Shown here: in pieces, positions 1 to 53,804 of the stretch
Position numbering within the stretch: the stretch's first letter is position 1
Layout: the number at the start of each line of letters is the position of its first letter
Source of the DNA: a candidate division WOR-3 bacterium
GTDB lineage: Bacteria > Hydrothermota > Hydrothermia > LBFQ01 > DSFT01
Reading direction: 5' to 3'
Length of the DNA: 64,000 bases
Assembly (NCBI GenBank): GCA_025060695.1
Contig: JANXBH010000002.1
Coordinates: 82,996 to 146,995, forward strand
Made by a program: the position numbers and the translations under genes
The notes under the pieces: model-generated
Told to the model about the DNA's origin: nothing
The model's database searches: none
What the model saw: only the letters and a program-made list of their open reading frames with translations

Positions 1-89
1 AATTCCAAAAAGCTTAATAGGAAAACCATTAAGGAGAATCTTAAGAGAAAGAGAAGAAAAAAGTAATATATAAGCAGGAGGTTTCAATA

Positions 90-2126
90 ATGAATATAGC
101 GAAGTTTTTAGATGAGCTAAATGATAAACAAAAAGAAGCAGTGCTAATTACTGAAGGACCTGTCTTAGTTTTAGCGGGGGCAGGAAGTGGAAAAACAAAA
201 GTTCTCACATACAGAGTAGCTTATATTCTAAAAACAGAACTTGCAGACAGTGAAAATATTCTAGCATTGACTTTCACAAATAAAGCAGCAAATGAAATGA
301 AAGAGAGAATCTGGAAAATTCTTGGAAAATTATCAAAAGACATATGGATTCACACTTTCCATGCAATGTGTCTTAGAATATTAAAAAAACATGCAAACTT
401 AATCAACTATCCATTAAATTTCGTAATATATGACCGAGATGACCAATTTAGAATAGTTAGAAGTATTATAAAAGATTTAAATTTAGAAAAAGAAGAATTG
501 AGAGCAGGAGAAGTAATTGATAGAATTATGGACTATAAAAGTATGCGTATTGAAAAGATTGATAACATTCATATGAAGATATACGAAGCATATCAAGAAA
601 AACTAAGGAAAAACAATGCTATGGACTTTGAAGACTTGATGTTAAACACAATAAAACTATTTAGCAAATATCCTGAAATAAGAGATTACTATGCAAAGAA
701 ATTTAAATATATTCATGTAGATGAATATCAAGATACAAATCACATTCAATATATCATTCTAAGAGAACTACTAACATATCACGATAATATATTCGTCGTA
801 GGAGATGAAGACCAAAGTATATATTCATTTAGAGGTGCGGACTTTAGAATAATACTCAATTTTGAAAAGGACTTCCCAAATGCAAAAGTTATTTATCTTG
901 AACAAAACTATCGCTCAACGAAGAAGATATTAAAATTAGCAAATATGGTTATAAAGAACAACAGGGAAAGAAGGGATAAAGTTCTATGGACAAATAATGT
1001 AGATGGCGAAGATCCAAAAATTCTAATAAATGAAGATGAAATAGAAGAATCAGAGAAAATTGCAAAAATCATTTTAAATTCAAAAAGACCATATTCCGAC
1101 TTTGCAATACTATTTAGAATAAATGCAATATCTAAATCTCTTGAAGAAACTTTCAATAAATATAGAATACCGTATAATGTTGTAGACGGTCAAAAGTTTT
1201 ATGAAAGAAGAGAAATAAAGGACTTAATAGCGTACTTAAGATTAATCTATAATCCTAACGATAACGTATCTTTTGAGAGAGCTATAAATTCACCACCAAA
1301 AGGTATAAGTGAGAAAACATTAGAAACTATTAAGCAAGTAGCAAATGAGCTAAATTGTTCATACTATGAAGCATTGAACTTAGCAAAGGAAAGAATAAAT
1401 AGGAAAAAGACAAGGGAAAGCATTGAACAATTTTTAAGAACTTTCGAAAACCTATTAAACTATTCAAAAGAACTAAATGTAAAGGAACTTGCAAAAAGAA
1501 TAATATTAGAAACTAATTACATTGATTATATACAGAAAAATGAGAGGACTAATACTTTAAGAGAAAGAATAGAAAATATAGAGGAATTCATAAATTCGTT
1601 AGATATCTATGAAAACCTTGAAGAATTCGTCCAGGATATATCCATTAAAATGGAAAGTGAAAATAAAAATAAAGAAAACTCAGTTTCAGTTATGACAATA
1701 CATTCTGCAAAGGGCTTAGAATTTCCAGTCGTGTTTGTAATTGGTCTTGAAGAGGATATACTGCCGCACAGATTAAGTATAGATGAAGGATTATTAGAAG
1801 AGGAAAGAAGGCTATTTTATGTATCTATTACGAGAGCAAAGGAAGAACTATATTTATCTTATTCAAGAATGAGATTTTTGAAAAATAGGCAAGAACTAAA
1901 AACATCAAGATTTTTGGAAGAAATAGGATATAAGGATGGAAAGATATATTTAAATAATTACACTGAAAACATGTTCAAATACAGAATTGGAGATTTAGTA
2001 AAGCATCAGAAATTTGGTTTAGGCAAAGTATTAGAGATAAAGGACAATAAAATCAAAATTATATTTAATGAACATGGAACTAAAACATTTTTACTAGATT
2101 TAGTAAGGCTCGAGAGAATAACTTAA
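90..2126 (+). CDS. uvrD: UvrD/PcrA-family ATP-dependent DNA helicase
   Basis: Walker A 'GAGSGKTKVLTYR', motif II 'DEYQDTN', 'VMTIHSAKGLEF' and a C-terminal Tudor-like tail; 678 aa. Confidence 0.9.
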   Translation: MNIAKFLDELNDKQKEAVLITEGPVLVLAGAGSGKTKVLTYRVAYILKTELADSENILALTFTNKAANEMKERIWKILGKLSKDIWIHTFHAMCLRILKKHANLINYPLNFVIYDRDDQFRIVRSIIKDLNLEKEELRAGEVIDRIMDYKSMRIEKIDNIHMKIYEAYQEKLRKNNAMDFEDLMLNTIKLFSKYPEIRDYYAKKFKYIHVDEYQDTNHIQYIILRELLTYHDNIFVVGDEDQSIYSFRGADFRIILNFEKDFPNAKVIYLEQNYRSTKKILKLANMVIKNNRERRDKVLWTNNVDGEDPKILINEDEIEESEKIAKIILNSKRPYSDFAILFRINAISKSLEETFNKYRIPYNVVDGQKFYERREIKDLIAYLRLIYNPNDNVSFERAINSPPKGISEKTLETIKQVANELNCSYYEALNLAKERINRKKTRESIEQFLRTFENLLNYSKELNVKELAKRIILETNYIDYIQKNERTNTLRERIENIEEFINSLDIYENLEEFVQDISIKMESENKNKENSVSVMTIHSAKGLEFPVVFVIGLEEDILPHRLSIDEGLLEEERRLFYVSITRAKEELYLSYSRMRFLKNRQELKTSRFLEEIGYKDGKIYLNNYTENMFKYRIGDLVKHQKFGLGKVLEIKDNKIKIIFNEHGTKTFLLDLVRLERIT

Positions 2127-3148
2127 GGTATGACTATAGCTCTTCCCCTTATTTTATTTTCTTTTAAGTTCTCAATCAACCTATTTATATCCTCAAGCTT
2201 ATAAAATTCTACATCTATAGGTGTAATAATATTATTTTCTGCAAGACTTAATAACTCTCTTAGTTCTTTTATATTTCCCCATAGACTAAATTCAAAGCTA
2301 ACCTCAAATCTTATATTCTCTAAGATTTTCAGGTTTGCACTACCGCCTGCAAGCCCAATCTGAACGACCTTACCACCTACTTTCGTGCTAACTACTGAGA
2401 GATTTAATGTTTCATTACTCCCCACAAAATCTAAACTTGCATCAACGCCTAAGTTATTAGTTATCTCCATTATTTTCGTAAGTGGATTTTCTTTATTTGA
2501 ATTTATAATAATATCCGCTCCATATTCTTTCGCTTTATTTAATTTTTCGTCGTTAATATCTACCGCTATAACCTTAGAAGGTGTTAGTGCCTTAATAATC
2601 TTTACACCAAACTGCCCAAGTCCTCCACAACCTATTATTAAAACATAGCTCTCACCATCTAAAAGATGCCTTATTTTCTTATATGCTCTATATGGTGTTA
2701 AACCTGCATCCGCATATATACAAGCAATTTTAGGCTCCAATTTGTCTATTCTTACTAAATACCTTTCATGAGGAACATATAGATATTCTGCATATCCACC
2801 GTCATTTAAAATCCCCACCCAATTAGGTCTGATACACAGATTTTCTTCTCCCTTTATACAAAAATCGCAATATCCGCAACCCCATCCACCATATACAACT
2901 ACTTTATCTCCTTCTTTTAAGTCTTTTACGTTCTTACCGACTTTATAAACAATACCAGCATTCTCATGACCAAGTGTCATAGGTAATTTAGGTAGTATCT
3001 TTATCTCTCCATCAATTATGTGCAAATCTGAATGACAAAAACCCGCTCCTTCTATCTTTACAATCACACCATTTTCATCAAGCTTAGGTTCTTCCACATC
3101 TTCAATAACTAAATCTTTTCCATATTCATATATTCTTGCAGTTTTCAT
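2123..3148 (-). CDS. Zn-dependent alcohol dehydrogenase (MDR family)
   Basis: 'GFCHSDLH', 'GHENAG' and a Rossmann 'IGCGGLG'; converges on uvrD with a 4-nt overlap. Confidence 0.8.
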   Translation of the reverse strand: MKTARIYEYGKDLVIEDVEEPKLDENGVIVKIEGAGFCHSDLHIIDGEIKILPKLPMTLGHENAGIVYKVGKNVKDLKEGDKVVVYGGWGCGYCDFCIKGEENLCIRPNWVGILNDGGYAEYLYVPHERYLVRIDKLEPKIACIYADAGLTPYRAYKKIRHLLDGESYVLIIGCGGLGQFGVKIIKALTPSKVIAVDINDEKLNKAKEYGADIIINSNKENPLTKIMEITNNLGVDASLDFVGSNETLNLSVVSTKVGGKVVQIGLAGGSANLKILENIRFEVSFEFSLWGNIKELRELLSLAENNIITPIDVEFYKLEDINRLIENLKENKIRGRAIVIP

Positions 3149-3166
3149 TTTTTTACCTCTTTTTTA

Positions 3167-3178
3167 AAAATTTTAAAG
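3167..3178 (-). promoter_or_regulatory. conserved intergenic palindromic promoter-like element (C)TTTAAAATTTT upstream of the adh start
   Basis: AAAATTTTAAAG on the plus strand; read on the gene strand it is CTTTAAAATTTT, then 21 nt containing GAGGT, then ATG. Confidence 0.5.
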
Positions 3179-3212
3179 TTAAAACAAATTTCCTACCACT
3201 TTAGTCAGAAAT

Positions 3213-3623
3213 TTAAATATCAAATATTACTATTGCATAAAAATTTCCATTTTCAGACCATATTTTCATCCTATGATAGGTCGGGCTTTTAATACCTATA
3301 CCTATCCTGTGTTTCTTTGCATTATAGTATTCTCCATATGCTCTGTAATTTAGTGTGTTATCCTTAATATTAACTTCAAAATCTTTGAATATAATTGCAC
3401 TTTTATCAAATTCAACTAAAAGGTTTTCTAAGAATAAATATAGCATTTCATTCATATCTTCAGAAACCACTTTTCCTTCTATAACTTCCTTATTTTCTAC
3501 ATCTTCTATATTTTCGCAGATAATTTTAAACATACCATATGCTGATAATTTAAACAATTCCTCAATACTTCTTGCAGATACCTTTATTCCAATATCTGCA
3601 GTATGCTCTATAAACTCAATCAT
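3213..3623 (-). CDS. archease
   Basis: N-terminal 'FIEHTADIGIKV' signature; about 136 aa. Confidence 0.65.
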   Translation of the reverse strand: MIEFIEHTADIGIKVSARSIEELFKLSAYGMFKIICENIEDVENKEVIEGKVVSEDMNEMLYLFLENLLVEFDKSAIIFKDFEVNIKDNTLNYRAYGEYYNAKKHRIGIGIKSPTYHRMKIWSENGNFYAIVIFDI

Positions 3624-4294
3624 ACTCCTGTAGTCCTATCCCATATAATAAGTTGTAGTCTCGGAGAAAAGTTAAACTTATACTTTTTACAAAGTTCAAC
3701 TACTATCAAACTCCTTTCTATAAATTCTTCCCTACTAGTTGAAAGCGGCATCAAGTAGATTAGTTCATTTGGTATATTAAATGGTTCTTTGTATGTTTCT
3801 ATCATTTCAATTACATCTTTTTCATTTTTTATTACGAATTTAAAAATAGCCCTTTTACTATTTAAAAAAAATTCTATTGCATCAGGATTTACTCTCAACT
3901 CTTCATTTACTAAACTATTTTTTAATTTTGGTGATGTATTAAAAAATACCTTATTCTCGTATGAAATAAGACCATAAGGCTTTCTTGTAGCTGATGTTTC
4001 TATTTCTATCATTCTAAAGCTATCCACAACTTCATATACAAGCTCATTTATGAAGTCATTATATATTAATGGTTCTCCACCTGTAATTACAAGATGAATA
4101 TCTTTATTAGACCTTTCTCTAATTGACTTAATAATTAATTCTCTATTTAATGGCTTTCCTCTCATCCAAATTTCCTTAGTATCGCACCAAATACATTTAA
4201 CGTCGCAACCTGCAAGTCTTAAAAAAAGTGCAGGAACTCCAGCAGTTTTACCTTCACCTTGAATTGAATAGAATATCTCTGAAACAGGTATCAT
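3620..4294 (-). CDS. queE: radical-SAM 7-carboxy-7-deazaguanine synthase (QueE-like)
   Basis: 'YSIQGEG...RLAGCDVKCIWCDT' cluster-binding N-terminus typical of QueE. Confidence 0.7.
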   Translation of the reverse strand: MIPVSEIFYSIQGEGKTAGVPALFLRLAGCDVKCIWCDTKEIWMRGKPLNRELIIKSIRERSNKDIHLVITGGEPLIYNDFINELVYEVVDSFRMIEIETSATRKPYGLISYENKVFFNTSPKLKNSLVNEELRVNPDAIEFFLNSKRAIFKFVIKNEKDVIEMIETYKEPFNIPNELIYLMPLSTSREEFIERSLIVVELCKKYKFNFSPRLQLIIWDRTTGV

Positions 4295-4920
4295 AAAAAT
4301 TTCCTTGAATAGTAATCCGCAAGTCTTATAGGCTCTGGCAATCTATAACCTCTTAAGGTATTAAGTACAACACTTAAAGCACTATTTAAATCAATAAGAT
4401 GACCCGGAGACACAAAGATTTCCTGTGTATCATCCTTACTTCTCAATGCATATGCAACAACTTTTCCATTAAAATACACTATTTCCGAACATCCTTTCTT
4501 CATACAGGGCTTTTTATATTTTCCTACAAGTAAACTCTTTGCGACACCAATAGTTGGTATATTCAATAGAACACCAAGATGACTTGCTATACCTAAACCT
4601 CTTGGATGACTAATACCATGTCCATCTACCATAATTAAATCAGGTTTTATACTTAGAGTTTTATAAACATTTAATAAATTAGGTGCTTCTCTAAAAGCTA
4701 AAAATCCTGGAATATACGGAAAATCTGTATGTGAAACTAAATTCTTAATCTCTACAACTCTTAGAGTTTTATATTCTAAAATAACAAATACAGAGTTTAT
4801 CAATTCTCCCCTAAATGCACTATCACATCCCGCAATATATTTAATTTCTGTATCCAAAGGCTTTAATATAACTTTTCTTCTTAACTCATTTTGCTTTTCT
4901 TTCAATACTTCAATGTCCAT
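4291..4920 (-). CDS. nfi: endonuclease V
   Basis: 'IAGCDSAF' plus overall length and pattern of the Nfi family. Confidence 0.7.
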   Translation of the reverse strand: MDIEVLKEKQNELRRKVILKPLDTEIKYIAGCDSAFRGELINSVFVILEYKTLRVVEIKNLVSHTDFPYIPGFLAFREAPNLLNVYKTLSIKPDLIMVDGHGISHPRGLGIASHLGVLLNIPTIGVAKSLLVGKYKKPCMKKGCSEIVYFNGKVVAYALRSKDDTQEIFVSPGHLIDLNSALSVVLNTLRGYRLPEPIRLADYYSRKFL

Positions 4921-5583: not shown

Positions 5584-6174
5584 TTATAGAATTTTAGTAG
5601 TATCTACCAAAAATATCACTTCTTTAAATCCAAAGCTTTTTATTAATTCCTTTAGAATTCTTCTTGCATTATCAACGGCAATTTTCTTAAAGTTGTCTTT
5701 TTCTAAGTCTTCCAATATAGCAATTTTTCCTTTTTGCAAGCTCTCGTTTATAAGTGCAATTCTATCACAAAAAAGAGTATTTTCTTTAAAAACTCTATGC
5801 GACTCAATTGAAACATCAAAATGAACATCTGGAACTGTTATATATACTGTATCCTCCTTAATCTTTATGTTGTCTTTTTTAACATTTTCTAAGTCTAAAT
5901 AAGCTATAACTATACCTTTTATAACAAGCGTTATACTACAAAAGTTTTCCTTCTTGTTCTTTACTATTTTTTGATATGGTATGGATAGTGAGCCTATTTT
6001 TTGAATTTTTTTAGCAGATGAAATTACTACATCTATATTTTGCACTTTTACTTGGTTCTTAAATTCTGAATAAAGTAGAATTAATATTACAAATGCCAAT
6101 ATTGATACATGTATTATATTTAGATTTTTTAATTTATTTTTCAAAAACCGCCTCCTTCTTAAAATTTGAAACAA
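5584..6174 (-). CDS. membrane-anchored hypothetical protein (DUF4230-like)
   Basis: basic N-terminus followed by a single TM helix; no catalytic motifs. Confidence 0.35.
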   Translation of the reverse strand: MFQILRRRRFLKNKLKNLNIIHVSILAFVILILLYSEFKNQVKVQNIDVVISSAKKIQKIGSLSIPYQKIVKNKKENFCSITLVIKGIVIAYLDLENVKKDNIKIKEDTVYITVPDVHFDVSIESHRVFKENTLFCDRIALINESLQKGKIAILEDLEKDNFKKIAVDNARRILKELIKSFGFKEVIFLVDTTKIL

Positions 6175-6643
6175 AAGCGGAGAGAAATTCTTTTAACCTA
6201 TCTCTCAGTTCGGACTGAATTTGAGAATCTGTTTCCATTAATGATAAATAAGCCCTTAAACTATCTTGAGCTATCTTTTCCACTTCCCTTCTGTTTTTTT
6301 GTGCACTAAGACTATAAAATAAAACATCTTCGTCATAGTTAGCAAGTTGAACATCATAATTACATACTTTAGCTTTTGGTAATTCTGAAAATATAACTTT
6401 TTTACCTTCAATTTTGTATTTTAAATCCTCAAGATTTACACAAAACCTTACATATGCTATTAGCTCAACTAAAAATCTATTCTCACCTATAAGCTTTGGA
6501 AAAGCTATATCCATGACGTACCTTGTCTTATACTCCATTAGGTATAGCTCCTTTATTTCTTTAATTTCATCAATTTTATCACTTTCCTCTCTACAAGCAT
6601 AAAAAGTAAAAAAACATAGAAATAACAAATTCAATTGTTTCAT
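6134..6643 (-). CDS. hypothetical lipoprotein
   Basis: signal peptide with lipobox 'FYAC'. Confidence 0.4.
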   Translation of the reverse strand: MKQLNLLFLCFFTFYACREESDKIDEIKEIKELYLMEYKTRYVMDIAFPKLIGENRFLVELIAYVRFCVNLEDLKYKIEGKKVIFSELPKAKVCNYDVQLANYDEDVLFYSLSAQKNRREVEKIAQDSLRAYLSLMETDSQIQSELRDRLKEFLSAFVSNFKKEAVFEK

Positions 6644-6697
6644 TAAATAAATTTTAAAGTAAATAGTCGCTATAACTGCTTTAAACTTTGAAAAATT

Positions 6698-7288
6698 ATG
6701 AGAGGATTTTTAATACTTTTAGGATTTTTTCTTCTTTTACTTTTTATTTTGATATTTCCAGTTATATCATTTTACAATGGTGCTATTAGTAAAAGAGAAG
6801 CAATTAAAAATCAGTTTTCTCAAATAGATGTTGTATTAAAAAGAAGATACGACCTAATACCTAATCTTATTCAAAGTGTAAAAGGAGTAGCTATACAAGA
6901 GCAAGAAGTATTTTTAAAAATAGCAGAAGCAAGAACTAAATATGGTTCTGCTATTACACCAGATGATAAAATAAAGGCAGCCAATGAATTAGAAGGATTA
7001 CTATCTAGACTTTTAGTGATAGTGGAAAATTATCCGCAACTTAGGTCATCTGAAAGTTTTTTAAAGCTTATGGATGAGTTAGCAGGGACAGAAAATAGAA
7101 TTTCAGTTGAAAGAAGAAGATATAATGAACTTGTAAGAGAATACAATACTTTTATTAAAACTTTTCCAAACAATATGTTAACAAAATTCTTTGGTTTTTC
7201 AGAGGCACAATATCTTGAAACACCAGAAGCAGAAAAAGAAGTACCAAAAGTTAATTTTGAAGATTTACGAGGAGGAACAAAAAAGTGA
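6698..7288 (+). CDS. lemA: LemA family protein
   Basis: N-terminal TM, then 'QIDVVLKRRYDLIPNLIQSVKG', the LemA core. Confidence 0.8.
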   Translation: MRGFLILLGFFLLLLFILIFPVISFYNGAISKREAIKNQFSQIDVVLKRRYDLIPNLIQSVKGVAIQEQEVFLKIAEARTKYGSAITPDDKIKAANELEGLLSRLLVIVENYPQLRSSESFLKLMDELAGTENRISVERRRYNELVREYNTFIKTFPNNMLTKFFGFSEAQYLETPEAEKEVPKVNFEDLRGGTKK

Positions 7289-8460
7289 TCAAAGTAGAAA
7301 CTTTGGACTTTCCTTATATTGGTGAGCAAGAAGTAGAGATTGTAGAAAGGAAAGGTATAGGACATCCAGATACTATGTGCGATAATATTGCTGAAAATCT
7401 TAGTATAGAGCTTTCAAGGTATTATTATGAAAATTTTGGCAAGATTTATCATCATAATGTAGATAAAGCAGTTCTAATAGGAGGTAGAGCAGTTCCTAAG
7501 TTTGGAGGCGGAGAACTATTAGAGCCTATAGAAATAAAAGTAGTTGGTAGAGCAATTTTAGAAGTGAGCGGAAAAGAAATACCAATAAGAGAAATATATG
7601 AAAAGAGTGTAAAAAGTTTCATAAAAAATAACTTCAAGGTTCTTGATCCTGAAAACCATATTAAATTGGAATATAAATTAAGACCGGGAAGTATTGATCT
7701 AATTGAGGTTTTTAATAGGAGAAATAGCGAAGTTCCTGAAGCTAACGACACATCATTTGGTGTAGGGTATGCTCCATTTTCAAAACTTGAAAGTATTGTA
7801 TATGGCATAGAAAGGTTATTATATAGTCTTAGAGAAAATCATCCATTTATTGGAGAGGATATTAAGGTAATGGGAGTAAGGCTCAAAAACCATATAAAAA
7901 TTACAATTGCACTTGCCTTCATAGACAAGTATGTAGAAAACATAGATGACTATATAGAAAAGAAAAAATTAATAAAAGATATTATTTTATATAACTTTGG
8001 TGATGAAATAGAGGTTTTCATAAATACTGCTGACAATTTTGAAAGTGGAGTAGTCTATATTACTACAACTGGGACAAGTGCGGAGGCGGGAGATGATGGA
8101 CAAGTTGGAAGAGGAAATAGAATAAATGGATTAATTACACCATATAGACCTATGTCATTAGAAGCACCTGCAGGTAAAAACCCCATAAGCCACGTAGGAA
8201 AACTATATAATATAACCGCAAACAGATTAGCAAATGAAATAGTTAATAGTTTTGATGAGGTAATTGAAGCATATGTTTATATTGTAAGTCAAATAGGAAA
8301 ACCAATTACACAACCTCAGATCTTAAATATAAAATTAAGGACAAAAAATAATAAAATAAGCACAATAAGAGAAAATGTGGAAAGACTATCAAGAAAATAC
8401 TTAGAAAGTATTACAGAATTGTGGAAGGAAATACTATACGAAAAAATTGAAATATGTTAA
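7285..8460 (+). CDS. mat: archaeal-type S-adenosylmethionine synthetase (methionine adenosyltransferase)
   Basis: 'VERKGIGHPDTMCD', 'ANDTSFGVGYAP', 'TGTSAEAGDDGQVGRGNR', 'NPISHVGKLYN'; near-collinear with archaeal MAT (recalled M. jannaschii sequence); GTG start overlaps the lemA stop (GTGA). Confidence 0.85.
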   Translation: MIKVETLDFPYIGEQEVEIVERKGIGHPDTMCDNIAENLSIELSRYYYENFGKIYHHNVDKAVLIGGRAVPKFGGGELLEPIEIKVVGRAILEVSGKEIPIREIYEKSVKSFIKNNFKVLDPENHIKLEYKLRPGSIDLIEVFNRRNSEVPEANDTSFGVGYAPFSKLESIVYGIERLLYSLRENHPFIGEDIKVMGVRLKNHIKITIALAFIDKYVENIDDYIEKKKLIKDIILYNFGDEIEVFINTADNFESGVVYITTTGTSAEAGDDGQVGRGNRINGLITPYRPMSLEAPAGKNPISHVGKLYNITANRLANEIVNSFDEVIEAYVYIVSQIGKPITQPQILNIKLRTKNNKISTIRENVERLSRKYLESITELWKEILYEKIEIC

Positions 8461-9596
8461 AAAAATACAAATATGCTATAATTGGTGGTGGTTTTGGTGG
8501 ATTGACAAGTGGTTTAAGATTAAGGGACTTTGTGATATTTGAAGCAACTGATAAACTTGGAGGCTGTGGTGGATATTTTATTAGAAATGGTAAAATTTTC
8601 AATGTGGGAGCAACCACAATAGCTTTTATGGGAAAGAATGAATATAGCAAAAAATTTTTTGAAAGTGTTGGATTAAAGCTAGACTTTTTGGAGCACAATA
8701 AGGCCTTTGATATTATTGAAAATGGTAAGATTTACAATAAGATTTCAGAACTAAAATCCAAAGGTATTTTTAATAAGCTATATGAAAACTTTTTTAGTAT
8801 TATAAAATACCTTGGACACTTTTTTAATTTAGTAAATGATAAAGAATTTGACGATATATTACTCATATCACTTCAGAGAAAAACCCCTGTATTTAGAATT
8901 TTTTACGAACTTAGTATAGATTACTATAAAAGTGTATGGGCAATATTTAAAAATGGATATTATGATTTAATTAGTCAAATTGAAAAGAAGCTTATGGAAA
9001 ACGGTGAGGTTTTAAAAAATACCAAAGTATTGAAAGTTATTGAAAACAAAATTATTACGAATAATGGAGAATACTACGCAGATAAGATTATATTTAATTT
9101 AGACCCTTGGCAAGTAAATCGCATTTTAGATAAAGAAATTATGAAAGTTCCAAATGAAGAGTTATTTAATGCTATTGTCATTTATCTTGAAATTGAAGAA
9201 GCAGAAAAGCTAAGTAATTTTTACTTTCTTATAAAGGATAACTTTAGAACAATCCACAGTCCGTTCATTTCCATATTTCAAAATGGAACAATTACCATTT
9301 CTGGGCATTATAAAAAATTCTACGAAGATAAAGAAATAGATAAAATACTTGAAATTGTGAAAGATGTATTGAAAATAAAATTTAAGCTTGTTTCCATAGC
9401 AGATAAAAGTGCCTTTGAAAAATATACAAGTAGATATAAAGGATATGTAGGTGGTCTTCCGATTAGTTATAAAAACTTAATATTTTCTCTATATAATGGT
9501 AGAAAAAGGGGAAACTACTACTTCGTAGGAGATTACTACTTTCCACTTCAAAGTCTTCCTAGTAGCATAATTAGGTCTTCTTTTTTTCTAAAGTAA
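8454..9596 (+). CDS. FAD-dependent oxidoreductase (amine-oxidase / phytoene-desaturase-like)
   Basis: 'YAIIGGGFGGLTSG' FAD-binding fold; translationally coupled to mat. Confidence 0.55.
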   Translation: MLKKYKYAIIGGGFGGLTSGLRLRDFVIFEATDKLGGCGGYFIRNGKIFNVGATTIAFMGKNEYSKKFFESVGLKLDFLEHNKAFDIIENGKIYNKISELKSKGIFNKLYENFFSIIKYLGHFFNLVNDKEFDDILLISLQRKTPVFRIFYELSIDYYKSVWAIFKNGYYDLISQIEKKLMENGEVLKNTKVLKVIENKIITNNGEYYADKIIFNLDPWQVNRILDKEIMKVPNEELFNAIVIYLEIEEAEKLSNFYFLIKDNFRTIHSPFISIFQNGTITISGHYKKFYEDKEIDKILEIVKDVLKIKFKLVSIADKSAFEKYTSRYKGYVGGLPISYKNLIFSLYNGRKRGNYYFVGDYYFPLQSLPSSIIRSSFFLK

Positions 9597-10998
9597 TTTC
9601 TCCACGTTTTACTTGAAAATAACATAAAAACTTATCATCTTTATTAGGAAAATCTATTCTATAGTGAACTCCCCTACTTTCCTCTCTTCTTAAGGCAAAT
9701 TCAAATATATATTTTATAAGGTTTTCATTCTTTATTTTCTTTAGGGCTCTTTTTAAATTATCTCCATCCCTTATTATGAAACAATATCTATCCAAAAGTT
9801 CTCTTTCCTCGTGTGATACAACATAACTTTCAATATTTTCATTATAGTAAATTTCCCTTAGTTTTACTCTTTTTAACTTTTTTGAAATATCCATAGCACA
9901 TAATTTTGCCATTACCAAACACTCAAGTAAAGAATTACTTGCAAGTCTATTTGCACCATGAATCCTTGTAGAGCTTACTTCACCAATAGTATATAAATTC
10001 TTTATTTCAGTAGTCCCATCCAAATTAGACTTTATGCCACCTATGAAATAGTGTGCGGATGGTTTTATTGGAATTTTATCTTTTGTCAAGTCATATCCGT
10101 AAAATTTCAATAGGTTATATAAATAACTGTATTTTTCTAATATTAGTCCTTTATCAATGTTTCCTGCATACAAATAAACCTTATTTTGTAAAACAATAGC
10201 TCTCGAGACTTTATCTCTTGTCTCTTTCTCATCTATAAATCTTTCACCTTTTTCATTCAATAATATTGCACCATCGCCCCTTATTGCTTCACTTATTAAA
10301 ATTCTTGAATTATCTGGTGCAAAGAATACTGTAGGATGAAATTGTATAAACTCTAAGTTTTCTAAAGTCAATCCACTTTTATATGCTATAAACATTGCAT
10401 CTCCTGTTGCAGTGTAAGGATTAGTTGTTCTTAAATAAAGTCCGGACGCTCCACCTGTTGCCAAAACCACAAATTTTGAATATATTCTAAAAATTTCATT
10501 ATCTCTTTGCAGTATAACTCCATATACCCTATTATTCTTTACTATTAGACCTAAAAGCTTTGTATTTTCCAAAAAGTTTACCTCTTTTAAACTTTGAATA
10601 AGGTAATTTGTTAAATTCTTTCCTGTTTGAATACCTCCAGAATGAATTATTCTTGCGACACTATGTCCACCTTCTATAGATAAGCCAATTTCATCATTAT
10701 CCCTATCAAATGGAGCACCCTCATTTATTAGTTCTAATACCACTTCCTTCCCAACATGAACAAACTTTTTAACTCTTTCTTCATCACAAAGACCATCTCC
10801 TGCCTTAATTGTATCTCTATAGTGAAATTCCAAACTATCTTTACTGCCAATAGCAACTGCAATACCACCCTGTGCCCAATACGAATTACTTAAATTTATG
10901 CTTCCTTTACTAATTACAAGTATATTCTTTGTAAATTTTGACAATTTATAAGCACAGAATAATCCCGAAATACCAGAACCTACTATAACAACATCCAC
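9571..10998 (-). CDS. nadB: L-aspartate oxidase
   Basis: 'VVIVGSGISG', 'AQGGIAVA' and the succinate-DH/fumarate-reductase flavoprotein fold; 475 aa. Confidence 0.85.
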   Translation of the reverse strand: MDVVIVGSGISGLFCAYKLSKFTKNILVISKGSINLSNSYWAQGGIAVAIGSKDSLEFHYRDTIKAGDGLCDEERVKKFVHVGKEVVLELINEGAPFDRDNDEIGLSIEGGHSVARIIHSGGIQTGKNLTNYLIQSLKEVNFLENTKLLGLIVKNNRVYGVILQRDNEIFRIYSKFVVLATGGASGLYLRTTNPYTATGDAMFIAYKSGLTLENLEFIQFHPTVFFAPDNSRILISEAIRGDGAILLNEKGERFIDEKETRDKVSRAIVLQNKVYLYAGNIDKGLILEKYSYLYNLLKFYGYDLTKDKIPIKPSAHYFIGGIKSNLDGTTEIKNLYTIGEVSSTRIHGANRLASNSLLECLVMAKLCAMDISKKLKRVKLREIYYNENIESYVVSHEERELLDRYCFIIRDGDNLKRALKKIKNENLIKYIFEFALRREESRGVHYRIDFPNKDDKFLCYFQVKRGEITLEKKKT

Positions 10999-11008
10999 TA
11001 CGAAAATT

Positions 11009-11680
11009 TTAAAATAATCTTAATAAATCCTCGCAATTTGAATACATGGTATAATACAAGGGAATTTCTAATAACTTCTTAAAAGTCTCAAAATTATAGA
11101 CTAATGCCCTCGTATTGTATAAACTTTCAAATATAGCCCTTTTTTTATCTTCAATATCCATCTCAAAAAGCACAAGTTTTGAACCATATTTAAAGTTAAT
11201 ATAGAACATCTTCTCAATCCTTGCACTATATGCAATTTTTGAAATATCCATAATCTTAAAAGCTGGTGAAAGGTAGCAAAATTCATCTTTTATAAATAAT
11301 AAATCCTCAGCAATATAAGAATAACCAAAATCCAATGACTTTCTTAAAATTGTAGTTTTTCCACTTGAAGGAGGTCCTATAAATACAATAGCATTTTTAT
11401 TATCCTTTGATATAGCAGATGCATGTAAAATTAAGTTTTCAGTAGAATTTATAGCATAAGCATTTCTCAAAAAATAAATCAGGTTTTGATATGCATTTTC
11501 TTTATAGTTAACATATACTACTTTCCTATCCTCATGAAATCTTGAAATTCCGTTATAACCTTTAACAAACACTATTTCATCAATACTTTGTGATTTTATT
11601 TCATAAAACCTTAAAAAAGAATTAGTTAAATCAAAATAGGAGCAAATTTTTATATTCTTTGAAAATAGTCTAACTTTCAA
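11009..11680 (-). CDS. HPr-kinase C-terminal-domain-like P-loop protein (standalone)
   Basis: 'LHASAISKDNKNAIVFIGPPSSGKTT' resembles the HprK P-loop region; there is no N-terminal HprK domain. Confidence 0.45.
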   Translation of the reverse strand: MKVRLFSKNIKICSYFDLTNSFLRFYEIKSQSIDEIVFVKGYNGISRFHEDRKVVYVNYKENAYQNLIYFLRNAYAINSTENLILHASAISKDNKNAIVFIGPPSSGKTTILRKSLDFGYSYIAEDLLFIKDEFCYLSPAFKIMDISKIAYSARIEKMFYINFKYGSKLVLFEMDIEDKKRAIFESLYNTRALVYNFETFKKLLEIPLYYTMYSNCEDLLRLF

Positions 11681-14800: not shown

Positions 14801-15571
14801 TTACATCCCTGTTTCTTTAAGTGCTACACTACATGGACAGTTTCTTTGAGTTGGAATTTTTTCAATTGCATTAAATAATATTTTTTTTACTTTTTCCAAG
14901 TTTCTATTCATATTCTCAATTACTTCAGTAGTTGTTAATTTTTTCTCCTTAATACCTGCTGCATAGTTAGTAACTACATTTATACCCGCATAACATATTT
15001 CTAATTCTCTACTTAAAATTGCTTCACTTACTAATGTCATACCAACTACATCAGCACCAAGAATTTTTAGCATTCTTATTTCAGCTGGTGTTTCAAGCCT
15101 TGGACCTTGCATTTGCGCGTAAACTCCAAATTCGTAAATCTCAATATTTAAATTCTTAGAACTTTCTAAAATCGCTTCCCTTAATATTGGACAAAATGGT
15201 TCAGAAACATCTATATGAACAACTTTATCATTATAGAATGTATTTATTCTTCCACTTAAATCAATAAAATCTGATGTTAAAACTAAGTCTCCGGGTTTTT
15301 TGGTTATTCCACCAACTGCGGAAATACCAATAATTCTTTCAATATCTAATAATTTAAATCCATATATATTAGCTTTATAGTTAACTTCATGTGGTAAAAA
15401 TGAGTGTTTTCTTCCATGTCTTGGCAGGAAGTATATTTCAAAATTTTTATATCTTGCATGTAGATAACTATCAGATGGACTTCCATATGGAGTAATTAAA
15501 TTGATTTCTTCAATAATCTCAATGTTTTCTATTTTATAAAGACCACTTCCTCCAATTATTCCTATTTTCAT
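14801..15571 (-). CDS. mtnP: S-methyl-5'-thioadenosine phosphorylase
   Basis: 'IGIIGGSGLY' and the PNP/MTAP fold; 256 aa. Confidence 0.8.
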   Translation of the reverse strand: MKIGIIGGSGLYKIENIEIIEEINLITPYGSPSDSYLHARYKNFEIYFLPRHGRKHSFLPHEVNYKANIYGFKLLDIERIIGISAVGGITKKPGDLVLTSDFIDLSGRINTFYNDKVVHIDVSEPFCPILREAILESSKNLNIEIYEFGVYAQMQGPRLETPAEIRMLKILGADVVGMTLVSEAILSRELEICYAGINVVTNYAAGIKEKKLTTTEVIENMNRNLEKVKKILFNAIEKIPTQRNCPCSVALKETGM

Positions 15572-16378: not shown

Positions 16379-17272
16379 TTAAAGTTTAAAGTTATTCCTA
16401 ATATAATTTTTAAAAATTTGTATATCTTCACTAATTACTCTTATACTTCCTGTCTTATGCCTAAATATAAGAGTAAAATTTTTAGCTAAGACATCATCAG
16501 CGAAGTCCATGGCAACTTGCATATTCTTCGAGTTTGAATTTACTATGATTGAAGTGTTTTCCTCATTCATGCTATTTCTTTCTATAAGTATATCTATATC
16601 TTCTTTTTCTTCAAAAAATCTTGAGTGAAATGTTGAAAGACTTTGATTACTAATTGTGATTTTCAAAGTTTTTCCTTTATAGTCTAAGTTTAAATATTCT
16701 ATATTTTTAAGCTTTTCCTCATATATCTTTTCTTCTTCTTCTATTTCCTCTTGTGCTTTCTGGGTTAAACCCTTTGCCATTAATTCCTCATATAATCTTT
16801 CCACAAATTTAGAATAATCCAAATCTTGTGATAGTAAATTCAATATAATCCTTCCAATTTCTTCATTTGGTTCAATTCTCAATATAGTCTTTATTCTCTT
16901 TACGAGTAAACTATCCTTTTTTACTAAACCTTCAGATTCTGCCCTTGGAAAACCAAACCTATCTATAATATCTATTGCATGAAGTGCACTATTATTGATG
17001 TTAATTTCTGGAAAAAATTTTTTTAACACTAAAATAATACTGGAATTTATGTTTAAGTCTTGATGATGGTCAAAATTATTTAAATTAGGGTCATAAGAAT
17101 TCCCAACATCTATGAGTATAATTCCACTGTCGTTTAGATATTCTGATGGAACATTTTGAGGATAAATATATTCTATAGTTGCATCTGGATATAAATACTT
17201 TAAAATAGAAATTGCTAAGAAGTCATCTAAATGACGAGGTGGTAAATGACTAACTATTTTCTTTACTACCAT
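16379..17272 (-). CDS. MYG1/UPF0160 family metal-dependent hydrolase
   Basis: 'DVGNSYDPNLNNFDHHQ' motif. Confidence 0.55.
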   Translation of the reverse strand: MVVKKIVSHLPPRHLDDFLAISILKYLYPDATIEYIYPQNVPSEYLNDSGIILIDVGNSYDPNLNNFDHHQDLNINSSIILVLKKFFPEININNSALHAIDIIDRFGFPRAESEGLVKKDSLLVKRIKTILRIEPNEEIGRIILNLLSQDLDYSKFVERLYEELMAKGLTQKAQEEIEEEEKIYEEKLKNIEYLNLDYKGKTLKITISNQSLSTFHSRFFEEKEDIDILIERNSMNEENTSIIVNSNSKNMQVAMDFADDVLAKNFTLIFRHKTGSIRVISEDIQIFKNYIRNNFKL

Positions 17273-18756
17273 TATAGGAATTTTGTAATTATTTTTAAAT
17301 AATTTTCATATCTCTCTTTGTTTATTTTCCCCATGGAAACCGCTTCTACTATTGAGCATCCCTCTTCCTTGATATGAAAACAATCTCTAAATGCACACTT
17401 GTATTTACTAAACTCCCTAAAGCAATTTCTAACATCCTCCTTTTTCATGATTTCATTTAGTTCTATCTTTGAAAATCCCGGAGTATCTGCTATAAATGTT
17501 TCATTATCAATAGAATATAGTTTTACTTCAGTAGTAGTTTGGGTTCCTCTTTTTAACCTTTTGCTAACTTCACCTATTCTTATATCTACGTTAGCTAAAG
17601 CTTTAATTAGTGAACTCTTACCTACACCACTCGGTCCAGCTAACACTACCAAGTCCCCCCTTATTCTATTTAAAAGTATATCCAAGTTCATATTTTCTTT
17701 TACACTAACCGTAATCACTTCATACCCAGCATCTTTATAAATACTTACATATCTTTCTAATTCTTCATTTGGTGTAATATCTACTTTATTGAAAACTATT
17801 ATACTTGGAATATTTAAAAATTCACACGCACAAAGAATTTTATCTAACTGAATTTGAACAATTTCAGGTTCTCGTATTGTAAACATTAAAATACACTTAG
17901 ATACATTTGCAATAGGTGGTCTTGGTAATAAATTTGTCCTTTCTTTTATTTTTTCAATTACAAAAAACTCACCTTCTCTTTTCCCAACAACTATATCTCC
18001 TACATATATTTTTCTTTCAGATTTTAATAATTTTCCTCTTGGAATAGCCCTAAAGACCTTGCCTTTTGAGATTACACTTAATTTTTGACCCTCTCTTGAA
18101 ATAACAGTTCCTATACATAAGTTCTTTCTAATAATATCAAGTATTTCTTCAATAACTTCATCCTCCCTTAAATTAGTTGTGTCTATTATAAATGCATCAC
18201 GTGAAGGTCTAAGCGGTGATATTTCTCTATTTAAATCTGAAATATCTCTATTTTTTAGAATTTCCAGAATATCCTCATATGATACATTACTTTTATTTAA
18301 CTGCTTATATCTTCTCATTGCCCTTTCTTCTAATTTTGCGGTTATGTAGAACTTATAATCTGCATCTTTCAAAACAACTGTCCCAATATCCCTTCCCTCT
18401 ACTATTGCTCCATCTTTTGAAAGTTCACGTTGAATGTCAATTAAAAAATCTCTAACTTGCTTAAATTTAGAAATTTCAGATGCAAGATTTCCTACTTTTT
18501 CATCCTTAATATTATCAGTTATATCTTCTCCATTCAAGAATGTTCTTGCAGTTTTATTTATAAATTTTTGTTCTATCTTTAGATTTTTTAAAAATTCAAA
18601 ATTATTATAGTTTTGCATCTTATTCTGGATTATATAGTATGCAATCGCTCTGTATAAAGCCCCGGTTTCTACATACTTTATATTTAGAATCTCACTTAGT
18701 TTTTTTGCAATAGAACTTTTTCCCGAACCTGCTGGACCATCAATGGCAATAATCAT
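17272..18756 (-). CDS. cmk-rsgA: fused cytidylate kinase (N-terminal) and ribosome small-subunit-dependent GTPase RsgA (C-terminal)
   Basis: N-terminus 'IAIDGPAGSGKSS' (Cmk, about 210 aa). C-terminus has an OB domain, then permuted GTPase motifs 'VFNKVD', 'GPSGVGKSS' and 'DTPGF', and a Zn finger 'CAFRDCFHIKEEGC' (RsgA). One uninterrupted 494-aa ORF. Confidence 0.8.
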   Translation of the reverse strand: MIIAIDGPAGSGKSSIAKKLSEILNIKYVETGALYRAIAYYIIQNKMQNYNNFEFLKNLKIEQKFINKTARTFLNGEDITDNIKDEKVGNLASEISKFKQVRDFLIDIQRELSKDGAIVEGRDIGTVVLKDADYKFYITAKLEERAMRRYKQLNKSNVSYEDILEILKNRDISDLNREISPLRPSRDAFIIDTTNLREDEVIEEILDIIRKNLCIGTVISREGQKLSVISKGKVFRAIPRGKLLKSERKIYVGDIVVGKREGEFFVIEKIKERTNLLPRPPIANVSKCILMFTIREPEIVQIQLDKILCACEFLNIPSIIVFNKVDITPNEELERYVSIYKDAGYEVITVSVKENMNLDILLNRIRGDLVVLAGPSGVGKSSLIKALANVDIRIGEVSKRLKRGTQTTTEVKLYSIDNETFIADTPGFSKIELNEIMKKEDVRNCFREFSKYKCAFRDCFHIKEEGCSIVEAVSMGKINKERYENYLKIITKFL

Positions 18757-21008
18757 TAGTAGTATGGACCTAAATTAAAGTGAGTTTTAAATTCTTTGTA
18801 CTTTAAACTATATGCAAAATCAAATCCCATAATTCCTACTATCGGAACCTCTATTCTAAAACCTATACCAATTGCATCATAAAGGTTTCTAAAGTCTATA
18901 GTTTTAATTGCCCACCAGCTATTTCCTGTTTCGTAAAATAATGAGATATAAAATTGGTCAGCAGGTCTAATTCTTTCCTCAAATGTAAACCTAAAAAAGT
19001 GCTTTCCTCCAAGAACGCTTGCACCCACCCTTGTCCCGATTGACCTAAAATCATAACCCCTTAAGCCCAATGGTCCTACGTCTCCAAGTGCAAAATATTC
19101 ATATGGTGGAAGATCCTGCTTTGCCAATATTGAAAATATTGAACCCCAGTTTACTCTAAGAAATGATACTAACTTATCTTTGTAATTGGGAATTAGTATA
19201 ATTAGTTCGGGAATAAATTTTATATAATGCAAATTTCCACCAATTGGACCACCTGTAATAGTCCAAGGAAAACTAAATGAATATCCCTTTGAAGAATTAA
19301 ACACTCTGTCTCTTGTATCATAGCTAAAGGTTGTAGTTAGTGAGCTTGATAGAACCCTTGGATTTTTTGTCCAAAAATCATAAAATTGACTTCCTTCATA
19401 TAGTGGACTTATATCATAAACAGAAATGTACTCAAATGTATAGTCAAATTTTATTCTTGAAAATAAATTCCAAAGTCTTCTACCATAACTTATGGAAATC
19501 CCTGTATTTCTTTGATTAAAAGTAAAAAGATATCTATTTAGACTATAAATATTTATACCCACAAGAATAGGTTTTCCTCCGAACCAAGGTTCAGTAAACG
19601 AAATTTGAAAGTTTTGTCTTCTTGCTCCATACTCCGCTAAAAAACCAATAGTCCAGCCTCTTCCAAGAAAATTTGGCTGCTGTAAATTTACATTAAAAAA
19701 TAGTCCATCAAGCTGACTATAACTTGCACCTGCTCCAATTTGACCTGTAGGCTTTTCCTCAACTTTTATCTCTAAATCTACAAGACTAGAATCTTCTAAA
19801 ACTGGCTTAAAGTTTACTCCTATATTTGAAAAGTAGTTTAAATAGTAGAGATTTCTATAAGAAAGTAAGAGCAAGCTTCTATTAAAGTAGTCTCCAGGAA
19901 ATATATAAATTTCTCTTCTAATAATTTCATCCCAAGTTTTAGTATTTCCATATATATTTACAAGTCTAACTTTCACTTTCCAATTTTCCTTAATCTTAAA
20001 CTTCACATTAATTGTACTATCGTTTTTTTCTTCAATAGGTTCAACTTGTGCATATATATACCCGCTATCAGCATATAAACTACTTATATTATTTGAGCTT
20101 TCTAAAACTTTTGCCCTTGAATATAATTTAGAATTATACCAAATACCATAACCTAATCTATATCTAATTGAATTAAAGAAGTTTAGTGGCTTTTTAATAG
20201 TTATCGCATTTTCTAATTGACTATTTTTAAACTTACTGTTTCCTTCAAAATTAATACTACCAAAATAGTATTTTTTACCTTCATTTAGGAAAATTTTTAT
20301 TTTTACAAACTTTTCTTCATATTCAAACTTAAATGAATCCACTTTAAAGTCAGCAAAACCACTATTTTTATAAAAATCTTCTAATGTTATTAAGTCTTTA
20401 TCAAATTTTTCCTGCGAGAAATAGCCTCCCCTTAATATCTTTCTAATAAAATTAACCTCCTTATTTGATAGTAAATTCTTCAAGAGCCTATCAGAAAAAC
20501 TTCTATTTCCGTAAAATTCAATCTTTGATATTCTATACTTTTGTCCTACATTACCAGAGATTATTAATTCTACTTTTGAATTATCTATAAATTTTTCTCT
20601 GATTTCTATCTTTGGATTCACATAACCCTTAGTAATGTAAAATTTTTCTATTAACTTAGAAATTTTATATTTATTGTAATTACTTGCTGGAAGACCTTTA
20701 TAAAATGATATTGAATCTTCAAATTCTTTTGAAACTTTCTTAATTTCCCACTTAAAGCCATTTATTGTAGGATAGTCTGAAACTTTAAATATTAAATCAA
20801 GTGTATCCTTTTTAAACTTACCATATACTTCAAAACTATCCAAGAAACCCTTTTCATATACGTCATATAAATAGTTTCTAAAGAATGGTTCTTGAAATGG
20901 CATATTTTCCTTTAAGAGCAAATTGTAAAGAAAGCTACTTTTTGAACGATATTTTAACCCTTGAACTTCAATTTTCCCTATAAACTGACCTAAAATGATT
21001 ATTAGCAA
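18756..21008 (-). CDS. bamA: outer membrane protein assembly factor BamA (Omp85)
   Basis: 750 aa with POTRA-like repeats and a C-terminal aromatic-rich beta-barrel. Confidence 0.8.
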   Translation of the reverse strand: MLIIILGQFIGKIEVQGLKYRSKSSFLYNLLLKENMPFQEPFFRNYLYDVYEKGFLDSFEVYGKFKKDTLDLIFKVSDYPTINGFKWEIKKVSKEFEDSISFYKGLPASNYNKYKISKLIEKFYITKGYVNPKIEIREKFIDNSKVELIISGNVGQKYRISKIEFYGNRSFSDRLLKNLLSNKEVNFIRKILRGGYFSQEKFDKDLITLEDFYKNSGFADFKVDSFKFEYEEKFVKIKIFLNEGKKYYFGSINFEGNSKFKNSQLENAITIKKPLNFFNSIRYRLGYGIWYNSKLYSRAKVLESSNNISSLYADSGYIYAQVEPIEEKNDSTINVKFKIKENWKVKVRLVNIYGNTKTWDEIIRREIYIFPGDYFNRSLLLLSYRNLYYLNYFSNIGVNFKPVLEDSSLVDLEIKVEEKPTGQIGAGASYSQLDGLFFNVNLQQPNFLGRGWTIGFLAEYGARRQNFQISFTEPWFGGKPILVGINIYSLNRYLFTFNQRNTGISISYGRRLWNLFSRIKFDYTFEYISVYDISPLYEGSQFYDFWTKNPRVLSSSLTTTFSYDTRDRVFNSSKGYSFSFPWTITGGPIGGNLHYIKFIPELIILIPNYKDKLVSFLRVNWGSIFSILAKQDLPPYEYFALGDVGPLGLRGYDFRSIGTRVGASVLGGKHFFRFTFEERIRPADQFYISLFYETGNSWWAIKTIDFRNLYDAIGIGFRIEVPIVGIMGFDFAYSLKYKEFKTHFNLGPYY

Positions 21009-51735: not shown

Positions 51736-51736
51736 A

Positions 51737-52486
51737 ATGATATTTTTTCTTGTTTCTCACTGTCCTGCTTGCGTAGGAGCCTTAAATGTGCCAACATCAC
51801 TTTCCACTACAAGCTTTAAAAACTATGAATTTTTCATAAATTATAACTACTCTTTTGGTTCAAGTGCAGACGTAAAACTAAACGCTCATACTTTTAATTT
51901 GACATTTGTAAGAAACTTTAGTAAATTCTCTCTTATTTCAGTGCTTCCTTTTACTTTATCAAGGAGTACTCATCATTCCTCTATAGATAATATAAACACA
52001 CTTTATGGTATAGACATGGGTTTTAGGTATTTTCCTGTATATTCAAAATACTCCAAAACAAGAAGCACTCTATCTATATTAGTTTCATACAAATTTCCTA
52101 TTGGTTTTTATTCCTTAAATAATGAAAACTTAAGGATAAGTGAATACATTAGTTTTGGAACAGGATATGCATTTATTATGAATAAAATTATAAGCTATGG
52201 TGAAGCAATTTATTCAAGGGCTTTAAAAAGAGATCATATGCAGTTAGATAAAGCAAGGGGTATTCTTGGTTTTTACTACGTTTTTGAGAATTTTGAGCTT
52301 GGACCAATTTTAAATTATGTATATCAGGAGGCATTAAGTTCAGATGAAATAAGCCTTGGTTTAAGTTATGGATTTTCTGTAAATAAACTGAATATAAACC
52401 TAAATGCACATAAAAGTGTGTTTTACAAAGGTCATGGAGTGGAAAATGAGTTTTCTTTTGAAATAAGCTTAAAGGGAGGTTTTTAG
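51737..52486 (+). CDS. putative outer-membrane beta-barrel protein
   Basis: The ATG at 51737 follows immediately after the cbaA stop, preceded by GGAGG; signal-like N-terminus and C-terminal '...SLKGGF'. The longer ORF from 51686 would overlap cbaA. Confidence 0.45.
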   Translation: MIFFLVSHCPACVGALNVPTSLSTTSFKNYEFFINYNYSFGSSADVKLNAHTFNLTFVRNFSKFSLISVLPFTLSRSTHHSSIDNINTLYGIDMGFRYFPVYSKYSKTRSTLSILVSYKFPIGFYSLNNENLRISEYISFGTGYAFIMNKIISYGEAIYSRALKRDHMQLDKARGILGFYYVFENFELGPILNYVYQEALSSDEISLGLSYGFSVNKLNINLNAHKSVFYKGHGVENEFSFEISLKGGF

Positions 52487-52487
52487 C

Positions 52488-52598: not shown

Positions 52599-52601
52599 AG
52601 C

Positions 52602-53411: not shown

Positions 53412-53422
53412 GGGAATATCGT

Positions 53423-53803: not shown

Positions 53804-53804
53804 C

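Follow-up and report, generated by a model that had tools for sequence, protein, structure and literature searches.

Which enzyme provides S-adenosylmethionine (SAM) in a bacterium that carries a SAM synthetase gene of archaeal type, where does this gene come from, and to which neighbours is it tied? The question is raised by a stretch of 64,000 nucleotides of DNA from a candidate division WOR-3 bacterium (GenBank assembly GCA_025060695.1, contig JANXBH010000002.1, positions 82,996 to 146,995 of the forward strand), which in its full length is termed the window in the following. An initial annotation made from the sequence alone had placed the gene in a transcription unit with lemA upstream and an oxidoreductase gene downstream, and had considered its presence consistent with ancient lateral transfer. 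Our analysis makes it very probable that the region encodes the SAM synthetase of the WOR-3 bacterium, a methionine adenosyltransferase (MAT) that is coupled to lemA and belongs to the bacterial branch of the PF01941 family, and that the flavoprotein gene downstream is a recent insertion.

The family assignment of the MAT is carried by several profiles. The protein matches PF01941 (AdoMet_Synthase) with E = 3e-158 and 527.2 bits against a cut-off of 27, and this sole Pfam match extends from end to end, residues 2-386 being aligned with positions 3-394 of the 395 profile positions. The NCBIfam subfamily model NF003366 likewise recognises the protein (541 bits, cut-off 435), whereas it stays under the cut-offs of the four other PRK04439 equivalog models, NF003362-NF003365. 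It thus belongs to the family without being an equivalog of any of those branches. The four motifs that had led to the initial assignment, VERKGIGHPDTMCD, NDTSFGVGYAP, GTSAEAGDDGQVGRGNR and KNPISHVGKLYN, are all present in the translation, and the signatures GHPD, NDTSFG, GTSAExGDDGxVGRGNR and AGKNPxSHVGK are found in the MAT and are invariant in 12 homologues. A phmmer search of the PDB at E <= 0.01 retrieved six chains, 7P83, 7P82, 6S81, 4L4Q, 4HPV and 4WS9, all of which are deposited as S-adenosylmethionine synthase (E-values from 4e-111 to 2e-102). We take 7P82 and 7P83 to be variants of the Methanocaldococcus jannaschii MAT, and 4L4Q is presumably the Thermococcus kodakarensis enzyme; 4HPV is the MAT of Sulfolobus solfataricus (PMC3853416). 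The Pfam domains of bacterial MetK (PF00438, PF02772 and PF02773) gave no match in the MAT, nor was any MetK structure retrieved from the PDB at the same threshold. Hence, the matches to PF01941 and to the PDB chains, together with the lack of MetK matches, bear out that this protein belongs to the archaeal-type family and not to bacterial MetK.

The residues that bind the product point in the same direction. In the structure 6S83 of the Pyrococcus furiosus enzyme (PfMAT), SAM is contacted by H30, H59, N61, D141, L142, D168, Y268 and D280 (PMC8727953). Seven of these contacts are identical in the window MAT, where they correspond to H27 (H30), H56 (H59), N58 (N61), D138 (D141), L139 (L142), Y258 (Y268) and D270 (D280). 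The remaining contact, D168, could not be placed by its index, which denotes a proline in the aligned chain; the aspartate of the nearby ANDTSFG motif is conserved as D155. Enzymes of the MAT family form SAM from ATP and L-methionine and then hydrolyse the triphosphate, and the archaeal enzymes characterised so far are homodimers (PMC3853416). By analogy, the window MAT would condense ATP and L-methionine to SAM and triphosphate and subsequently hydrolyse the triphosphate to pyrophosphate and phosphate, and it probably acts as a homodimer as well.

A protein of 100% identity is available at NCBI under the name 'MAG: methionine adenosyltransferase [candidate division WOR-3 bacterium]'. It is encoded on contig JAOAEM010000002.1 of another WOR-3 metagenome-assembled genome (MAG), GCA_026416795.1, with a gene order equal to that of the window. 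The MAT is an ordinary housekeeping gene that has already been annotated, and the occurrence of the archaeal class in bacteria has long been known. The points that are new are minor ones, namely the coupling of lemA and MAT, a correction of the start site and the context of a near-orphan flavoprotein. They concern the following features of the window:

6698 to 7288, forward strand: lemA, 196 amino acids; LemA family, a hydrophobic N-terminal segment followed by a helical soluble domain.
7270 to 7275, forward strand: Shine-Dalgarno sequence AGGAGG for MAT, within the Arg-Gly-Gly codons at the 3'-end of lemA, 9 nucleotides upstream of the GTG.
7285 to 8460, forward strand: MAT (methionine adenosyltransferase, PF01941 / COG1812), GTG start, 391 amino acids.
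8454 to 9596, forward strand: flavoprotein, the third open reading frame (ORF), with a CrtI / amine-oxidase fold, as predicted; 380 amino acids.
9571 to 10998, reverse strand: nadB (L-aspartate oxidase), 475 amino acids; convergent gene and downstream boundary of the lemA-MAT-flavoprotein unit.

The coordinates given for lemA, MAT and the flavoprotein gene in the initial annotation were reproduced exactly by the ORF list, and the overlap that it described between the MAT start and the lemA stop is apparent from the junction sequence. The GTG at 7285-7287 and the TGA stop codon of lemA at 7286-7288 share two bases (GTGA), and the two ORFs overlap by 4 nucleotides. At the second junction the description holds in part: the ORFs do overlap, by 7 nucleotides, but the flavoprotein ATG (8454-8456) lies 2 nucleotides before the TAA of MAT (8458-8460) and shares no base with it. 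At its 3'-end, the flavoprotein gene overlaps the convergent nadB gene by 26 nucleotides.

The deposited version of the MAT begins at TTG 7303 and comprises 385 amino acids, that is, it starts six codons downstream of GTG 7285. The N-terminus MIKVE that results from the GTG aligns with the MIRV of homologues, in five relatives the aligned codon is ATG or GTG, and the Shine-Dalgarno sequence is located upstream. We therefore favour GTG 7285, which is probably the true start, the deposited protein being six codons too short. The practical use of this result is the correction of the deposited annotation, with GTG 7285 instead of TTG 7303. Translation of MAT would accordingly start at GTG 7285 and would be coupled to that of lemA by means of the AGGAGG in the last lemA codons.

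The upstream partner is a typical LemA protein. It matches PF04011 over the entire profile (positions 1-149 of 149, E = 3.5e-56, 189.6 bits) and the PDB entry 2ETD, 'lemA protein', with E = 1e-45, and its hydrophobic N-terminal segment, as read from the translation, comprises residues about 4-25. An assignment as MamQ was tried and rejected (equivalog model NF040966, 100.9 bits against a cut-off of 250). To follow the junction beyond the window, the gene context was read in individual relatives and complemented by a phmmer scan across all loci. In every relative whose MAT is at least 65% identical, lemA lies directly upstream of MAT, its stop codon overlapping the MAT start. Apart from the window itself (L001), these loci are L002-L004 (85% identity), L005 and L006 (69%), L007, L008 and L094 (66%), L011 (66%), and L009 and L093 (65%). 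The outer flanks vary among them, with DUF4230 genes, an M24 peptidase gene, mutS or the gene for ribosomal protein L21 upstream, and with the flavoprotein gene, nadB or a Complex1_49kDa gene downstream. The junction is the common element of all lineages that were read (window, L002, L005, L007, L009 and L011): LemA ends with ...NFEDLRGG..., the Arg-Gly-Gly codons read GAGGAGG or GGGAGG, and the MAT start follows 6-9 nucleotides further on.

Outside this group the arrangement is absent. The 58-59% identical relatives (L010 and L095) have no lemA beside MAT, and nadA and another gene are found upstream instead. No lemA was detected near MAT in a 52% identical WOR-3 locus (L021) or in the scanned flanks of 78 other loci (L012-L020 and L022-L090), which span Aquificota, Proteobacteria, archaea and others. 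Judged from sequence, lemA-MAT is a translationally coupled pair that is confined to the WOR-3/Hydrothermia clade, with MATs of 65-85% identity, and, since the junction is conserved across this clade, it constitutes a conserved expression unit. In the papers searched we found neither a description of a lemA 3'-end bearing a MAT ribosome-binding site nor a link between LemA and MAT, and we regard the clade-wide coupling as a mildly new point.

A functional link between the two proteins is thinkable because the pair survives changes of its outer flanks and because the Arg-Gly-Gly codons of lemA double as the ribosome-binding site of MAT. The membrane-anchored LemA and MAT might cooperate and for this reason be produced in a fixed ratio; LemA could, for instance, hold MAT at the membrane or regulate it there. 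We consider such a partnership improbable; if true, it would provide the functionally obscure LemA family with its first metabolic partner.

Does the third gene belong to the same unit? The term 'FAD oxidoreductase' (FAD, flavin adenine dinucleotide) chosen by the initial annotation is right at the level of the superfamily, given the predicted two-domain fold of CrtI / amine-oxidase type. The translation begins with MLKKYKYAIIGGGFGG and contains an N-terminal GxGxxG dinucleotide-binding motif. The Pfam matches are limited to NAD_binding_8 (29.4 against 21.9) and Amino_oxidase, both N-terminal and weak, and a search of 5.8 billion proteins yielded five matches, with identities of 100, 85, 53, 28 and 23%. 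An AlphaFold2 (AF2) model built from this shallow alignment is of moderate confidence (predicted local distance difference test, pLDDT, 67; predicted template-modelling score, pTM, 0.71). With Foldseek it most resembles the gamma-carotenoid desaturase 4REP (E = 4e-16), followed by the uncharacterised archaeal oxidoreductases 3NRN (2e-15) and 3KA7 and then by amine oxidases. Compared with relatives of 468-471 amino acids, the protein has a middle domain that is shorter by about 90 residues, and its C-terminal FAD motif reads FPLQS where the relatives have FPGQG and thus departs from the canonical PGxG. An identity as CrtI, CrtD or protoporphyrinogen oxidase was rejected, as the protein scores 55.8 against 549.7 with TIGR02733 and 19.6 against 238 with TIGR02734.

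The arrangement of this gene differs from that of lemA and MAT. The flavoprotein gene follows MAT in the window and in the 85% identical relative only, and it is absent after MAT in L005, L007, L009, L093 and L094. The 53% identical homologue is part of a cluster without MAT (L091, positions 1-4820) that comprises genes for a squalene/phytoene synthase, a photolyase, a SAM-dependent methyltransferase, the homologue itself and DUF1722. The 28% identical homologue (L092, 5001-9394) adjoins a MerR/B12-binding regulator gene and a 2-thiouracil-desulfurase/DUF1722 gene. These clusters look like light or photo-oxidative-stress clusters, and, from the gene context of the homologues, the substrate of the flavoprotein may be an isoprenoid or a lipid. 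In the window, no paralogues of lemA or of the flavoprotein gene and no homologues of the L091 cluster were found besides the genes themselves. Given the 7-nucleotide overlap of the ORFs, the flavoprotein gene is probably co-transcribed with MAT. It would have been inserted recently, and in this lineage only, between MAT and the convergent nadB gene, and it is no conserved partner of MAT in function.

One could alternatively read lemA, MAT and the flavoprotein gene as a single pathway operon, with SAM or LemA as target or partner of the flavoprotein. The three ORFs are indeed co-directional with ends that overlap by 4 and 7 nucleotides, the order is the same in the 85% relative, and purifying selection acts on each of the three: in comparison with this relative, the ratio of nonsynonymous to synonymous substitution rates (dN/dS) is 0.07 for lemA, 0.115 for MAT, 0.105 for the flavoprotein gene and 0.14 for nadB, low values which indicate that all four genes are maintained by selection. 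However, the farther members of the lemA-MAT clade have nadB or a Complex1_49kDa gene directly after MAT and no flavoprotein gene, and the 53% and 28% homologues reside in the cluster without MAT and beside the MerR/B12-binding regulator, respectively. As the flavoprotein gene adjoins MAT in this lineage only, a functional three-gene operon is not supported, and we hold it to be decidedly improbable. What stands of the unit postulated by the initial annotation is the conserved coupling of lemA with MAT, while the oxidoreductase gene joins it only in the window and its 85% relative and has its 53% homologue in a different gene cluster. As a practical pointer, the near-orphan flavoprotein family is otherwise encountered beside genes for phytoene/squalene synthase, photolyase and DUF1722.

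We then considered the origin of the MAT. Among the best 120 matches of a protein search, all named ones are bacterial and derive from WOR-3, Candidatus Hydrothermia, Aquificota, with aq_1226 of Aquifex aeolicus among them, and Thermovibrio. In addition, relatives were sought in one genome per GTDB species by means of two search motifs, which gave at least 600 pattern matches and 593 confirmed relatives, the best 80 of which were listed. These best 80 of at least 593 include Aquificota, Acidobacteria, Burkholderiales, Gamma- and Alphaproteobacteria, Myxococcota, Planctomycetota, Bacteroidota and many archaea, and cultured Ensifer, Chelatococcus and Actibacterium are among them. The archaeal MAT class was defined by Graham et al. 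(2000, J Biol Chem 275:4055, as cited in PMC545781), and an archaeal-type SAM synthase in bacteria was published for Geobacter in 2004 (Rodionov et al., PMC545781). In view of its spread over many bacterial phyla, the 2004 report and the name of the NCBI protein, an archaeal-type MAT is not unusual for a bacterium. Our search of the literature found nothing on WOR-3 MATs, and a paper on lateral transfer in Aquifex does not mention the gene.

A neighbour-joining (NJ) tree of 86 MATs was calculated from Kimura distances over 374 columns and bootstrapped 200 times. The window MAT and its 85% relative form a pair (100% bootstrap) within a six-member WOR-3/Hydrothermia clade (100%), the next branch out is a 59% identical relative (88%), and deeper nodes receive 37-44%. 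Outside the window clade, with L010 counted inside, the smallest distance is that to a 'Nanobdellati' MAG (0.60), followed by Aquificota (0.64-0.69), other archaea (at least 0.73) and Proteobacteria (at least 0.76). No archaeal lineage is specifically sister to the window MAT in the tree. The MAT thus appears to have been inherited within the bacterial branch of the family, with Aquificota as the nearest outside group. The best division of the tree by domain sets 27 archaea and 2 bacteria against 56 bacteria and the one 'Nanobdellati' MAG, so that 3 of the 86 sequences are misplaced.

The following points weigh against the reading of the region proposed here. The bootstrap value of the bacteria/archaea split is just 41.5%. 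Both the use of two search motifs and the ranking by similarity to the query bias the sample behind the tree. As to transcription, a scan of positions 6100-11100 for sigma-70 promoters and intrinsic terminators returned counts at or below those expected from shuffled sequence, and, such scans being uninformative in DNA of 29% guanine plus cytosine (GC), co-transcription is deduced from the ORF overlaps alone. With deep nodes below 50% bootstrap, the tree neither shows nor excludes an ancient transfer. From the initial annotation the archaeal-type family stands, and the position of the MAT among bacterial PF01941 proteins, first of WOR-3/Hydrothermia and then of Aquificota, is an outcome that it had named as partly refuting.

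The 'Nanobdellati archaeon' sequence (L017, JALTKB010000045.1, positions 1075-2226) deserves separate mention. Its MAT is 56% identical to that of the window and groups with bacterial sequences in the NJ tree, beside HR37 and Bacteroidota. It could be due to binning contamination or to a transfer from a bacterium to an archaeon.

A recent lateral acquisition of the MAT from an archaeon would account for the fact that PF01941 is the standard MAT of archaea and for the high identity of 47-50% to archaeal enzymes. It conflicts with the listed matches, which down to about 52% identity are bacterial except for the 'Nanobdellati archaeon' MAG (56%), and with the clade-wide synteny with the bacterial gene lemA. 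Moreover, the GC content of the MAT region (0.28-0.29) does not deviate from that of its flanks (0.28-0.32 across the window), and no genes of mobile elements were found adjacent to it. Composition, nearest neighbours and synteny effectively refute this scenario, to which we give next to no credence.

Inheritance within the bacterial branch leaves the question of whether the MAT is the housekeeping enzyme or whether it is an accessory one, a canonical MetK encoded elsewhere in the genome performing the housekeeping task. MetK was searched for by tblastn with the sequence of the E. coli protein, in which small errors would be immaterial given the conservation of MetK. Neither the 64-kb window, with a best E of 0.42, nor the loci L001-L010 gave a significant match, in line with the statement of the initial annotation that the window contains no bacterial metK. 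An accessory role has its precedents, as Geobacter species possess MetK in addition to an archaeal-type isozyme (PMC545781). Many Proteobacteria and Bacteroidota are found among the best 80 of at least 593 carriers of PF01941. Proteobacteria and Bacteroidota normally have MetK. Furthermore, the metK search of this genome covered 64 kb. On the other side, there was zero MetK signal in the window or in L001-L010, the purifying selection on MAT (dN/dS 0.115) is as strong as that on its neighbours, and a deep clade retains the gene together with a fixed junction for its expression. In addition, a reconstructed activated methyl cycle for Thermovibrio ammonificans lists a single MAT, Theam_1075, the class of which is unstated (PMC5441870). 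On this evidence an accessory MAT is unlikely, though by no means far-fetched, and we prefer the reading of the gene as the SAM synthetase of the bacterium. WOR-3 bacteria, like Aquificota, would then use the PF01941 enzyme, which adds one more point to the known patchy distribution of MAT classes.

Regarding the surroundings, the genome encodes BamA (Omp85 and POTRA domains) at 18756-21008, on account of which the host is a diderm bacterium as had been supposed. The nadB product was identified by TIGR00551 (E = 6e-125, 418 bits, just under the equivalog cut-off of 453 bits) and by FAD_binding_2 (261 bits). The gene lies convergent just downstream of the MAT region in the window and directly after MAT in L005, L007 and L094, and nadA is located two genes upstream of MAT in the 58-59% identical sister group (L010 and L095). 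The vicinity of MAT to genes for the biosynthesis of nicotinamide adenine dinucleotide (NAD) may be a remnant of ancestral synteny, and no functional link is evident. An Rfam scan of the whole window matched no RNA family, SAM riboswitches included. About 5 kb downstream of MAT (14801-15571, reverse strand) a PNP_UDP_1 phosphorylase is encoded, possibly a methylthioadenosine (MTA) or purine nucleoside phosphorylase and as such a candidate for SAM salvage.

Upstream, and divergent from lemA, two tandem overlapping DUF4230 genes occupy positions 5584-6643 (reverse strand); in L007 and L094 this place is taken by two or three small genes, for which no Pfam match was recorded. Further upstream (3213-4920, reverse strand), genes for archease, a small radical-SAM protein and endonuclease V stand back to back with overlapping ends, a trio that is also present in L002. 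The 494-amino acid ORF at 17272-18756 (reverse strand) is an unusual fusion that joins a full cytidylate kinase domain (residues 3-210) to a domain of the ribosome-assembly GTPase RsgA (residues 270-433). A protein of 508 amino acids (22107-23633, forward strand) contains 3-dehydroquinate synthase domains from residue 228 onwards, and its first approximately 225 residues gave no Pfam match at E <= 1e-5. Finally, the region 50116-55106 (forward strand) encodes subunit I of a heme-copper oxidase (539 amino acids) and, separated from it by universal-stress and small unassigned genes, a short COX2-like protein, an indication that this WOR-3 lineage respires or detoxifies oxygen.

In comparison with known systems, the archaeal enzymes MjMAT, PfMAT, TkMAT and SsMAT resemble the window MAT in their colinearity over the full length, in the signature motifs and in the size class of about 390-405 amino acids. 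The window MAT differs by its bacterial host, by its place in the bacterial branch with the NF003366 model and by the lack of short insertions that are present in MjMAT, for example after residue 98. Nearest outside the window clade, with 53-56% identity, are the PF01941 MATs of Aquificota (Aquifex aeolicus aq_1226, Thermovibrio, Persephonella and Desulfurobacterium), which likewise derive from bacterial hosts of hot environments and are already annotated as methionine adenosyltransferase. Unlike the window MAT, they have lemA upstream in none of the loci examined, and with 392-400 amino acids they contain small extra segments. The 'additional archaeal-type SAM synthase' of Geobacter and Desulfuromonas is the published precedent for an archaeal-type MAT in bacteria, where, however, it coexists with MetK (PMC545781); in our NJ tree the Desulfuromonadales MAT groups with archaea and not with the WOR-3/Aquificota side. 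Bacterial MetK catalyses the same reaction with the same overall fold and shares an ancient common origin with the archaeal class, the identity between the two classes being about 20% (PMC3853416). As to the partner gene, the window LemA is typical of its family, represented by the Thermotoga maritima lemA structure 2ETD, in having an N-terminal hydrophobic anchor and a helical domain, and it is not an equivalog of the MamQ protein of magnetosomes. Its gene is set apart by a 3'-end that carries the ribosome-binding site of MAT.

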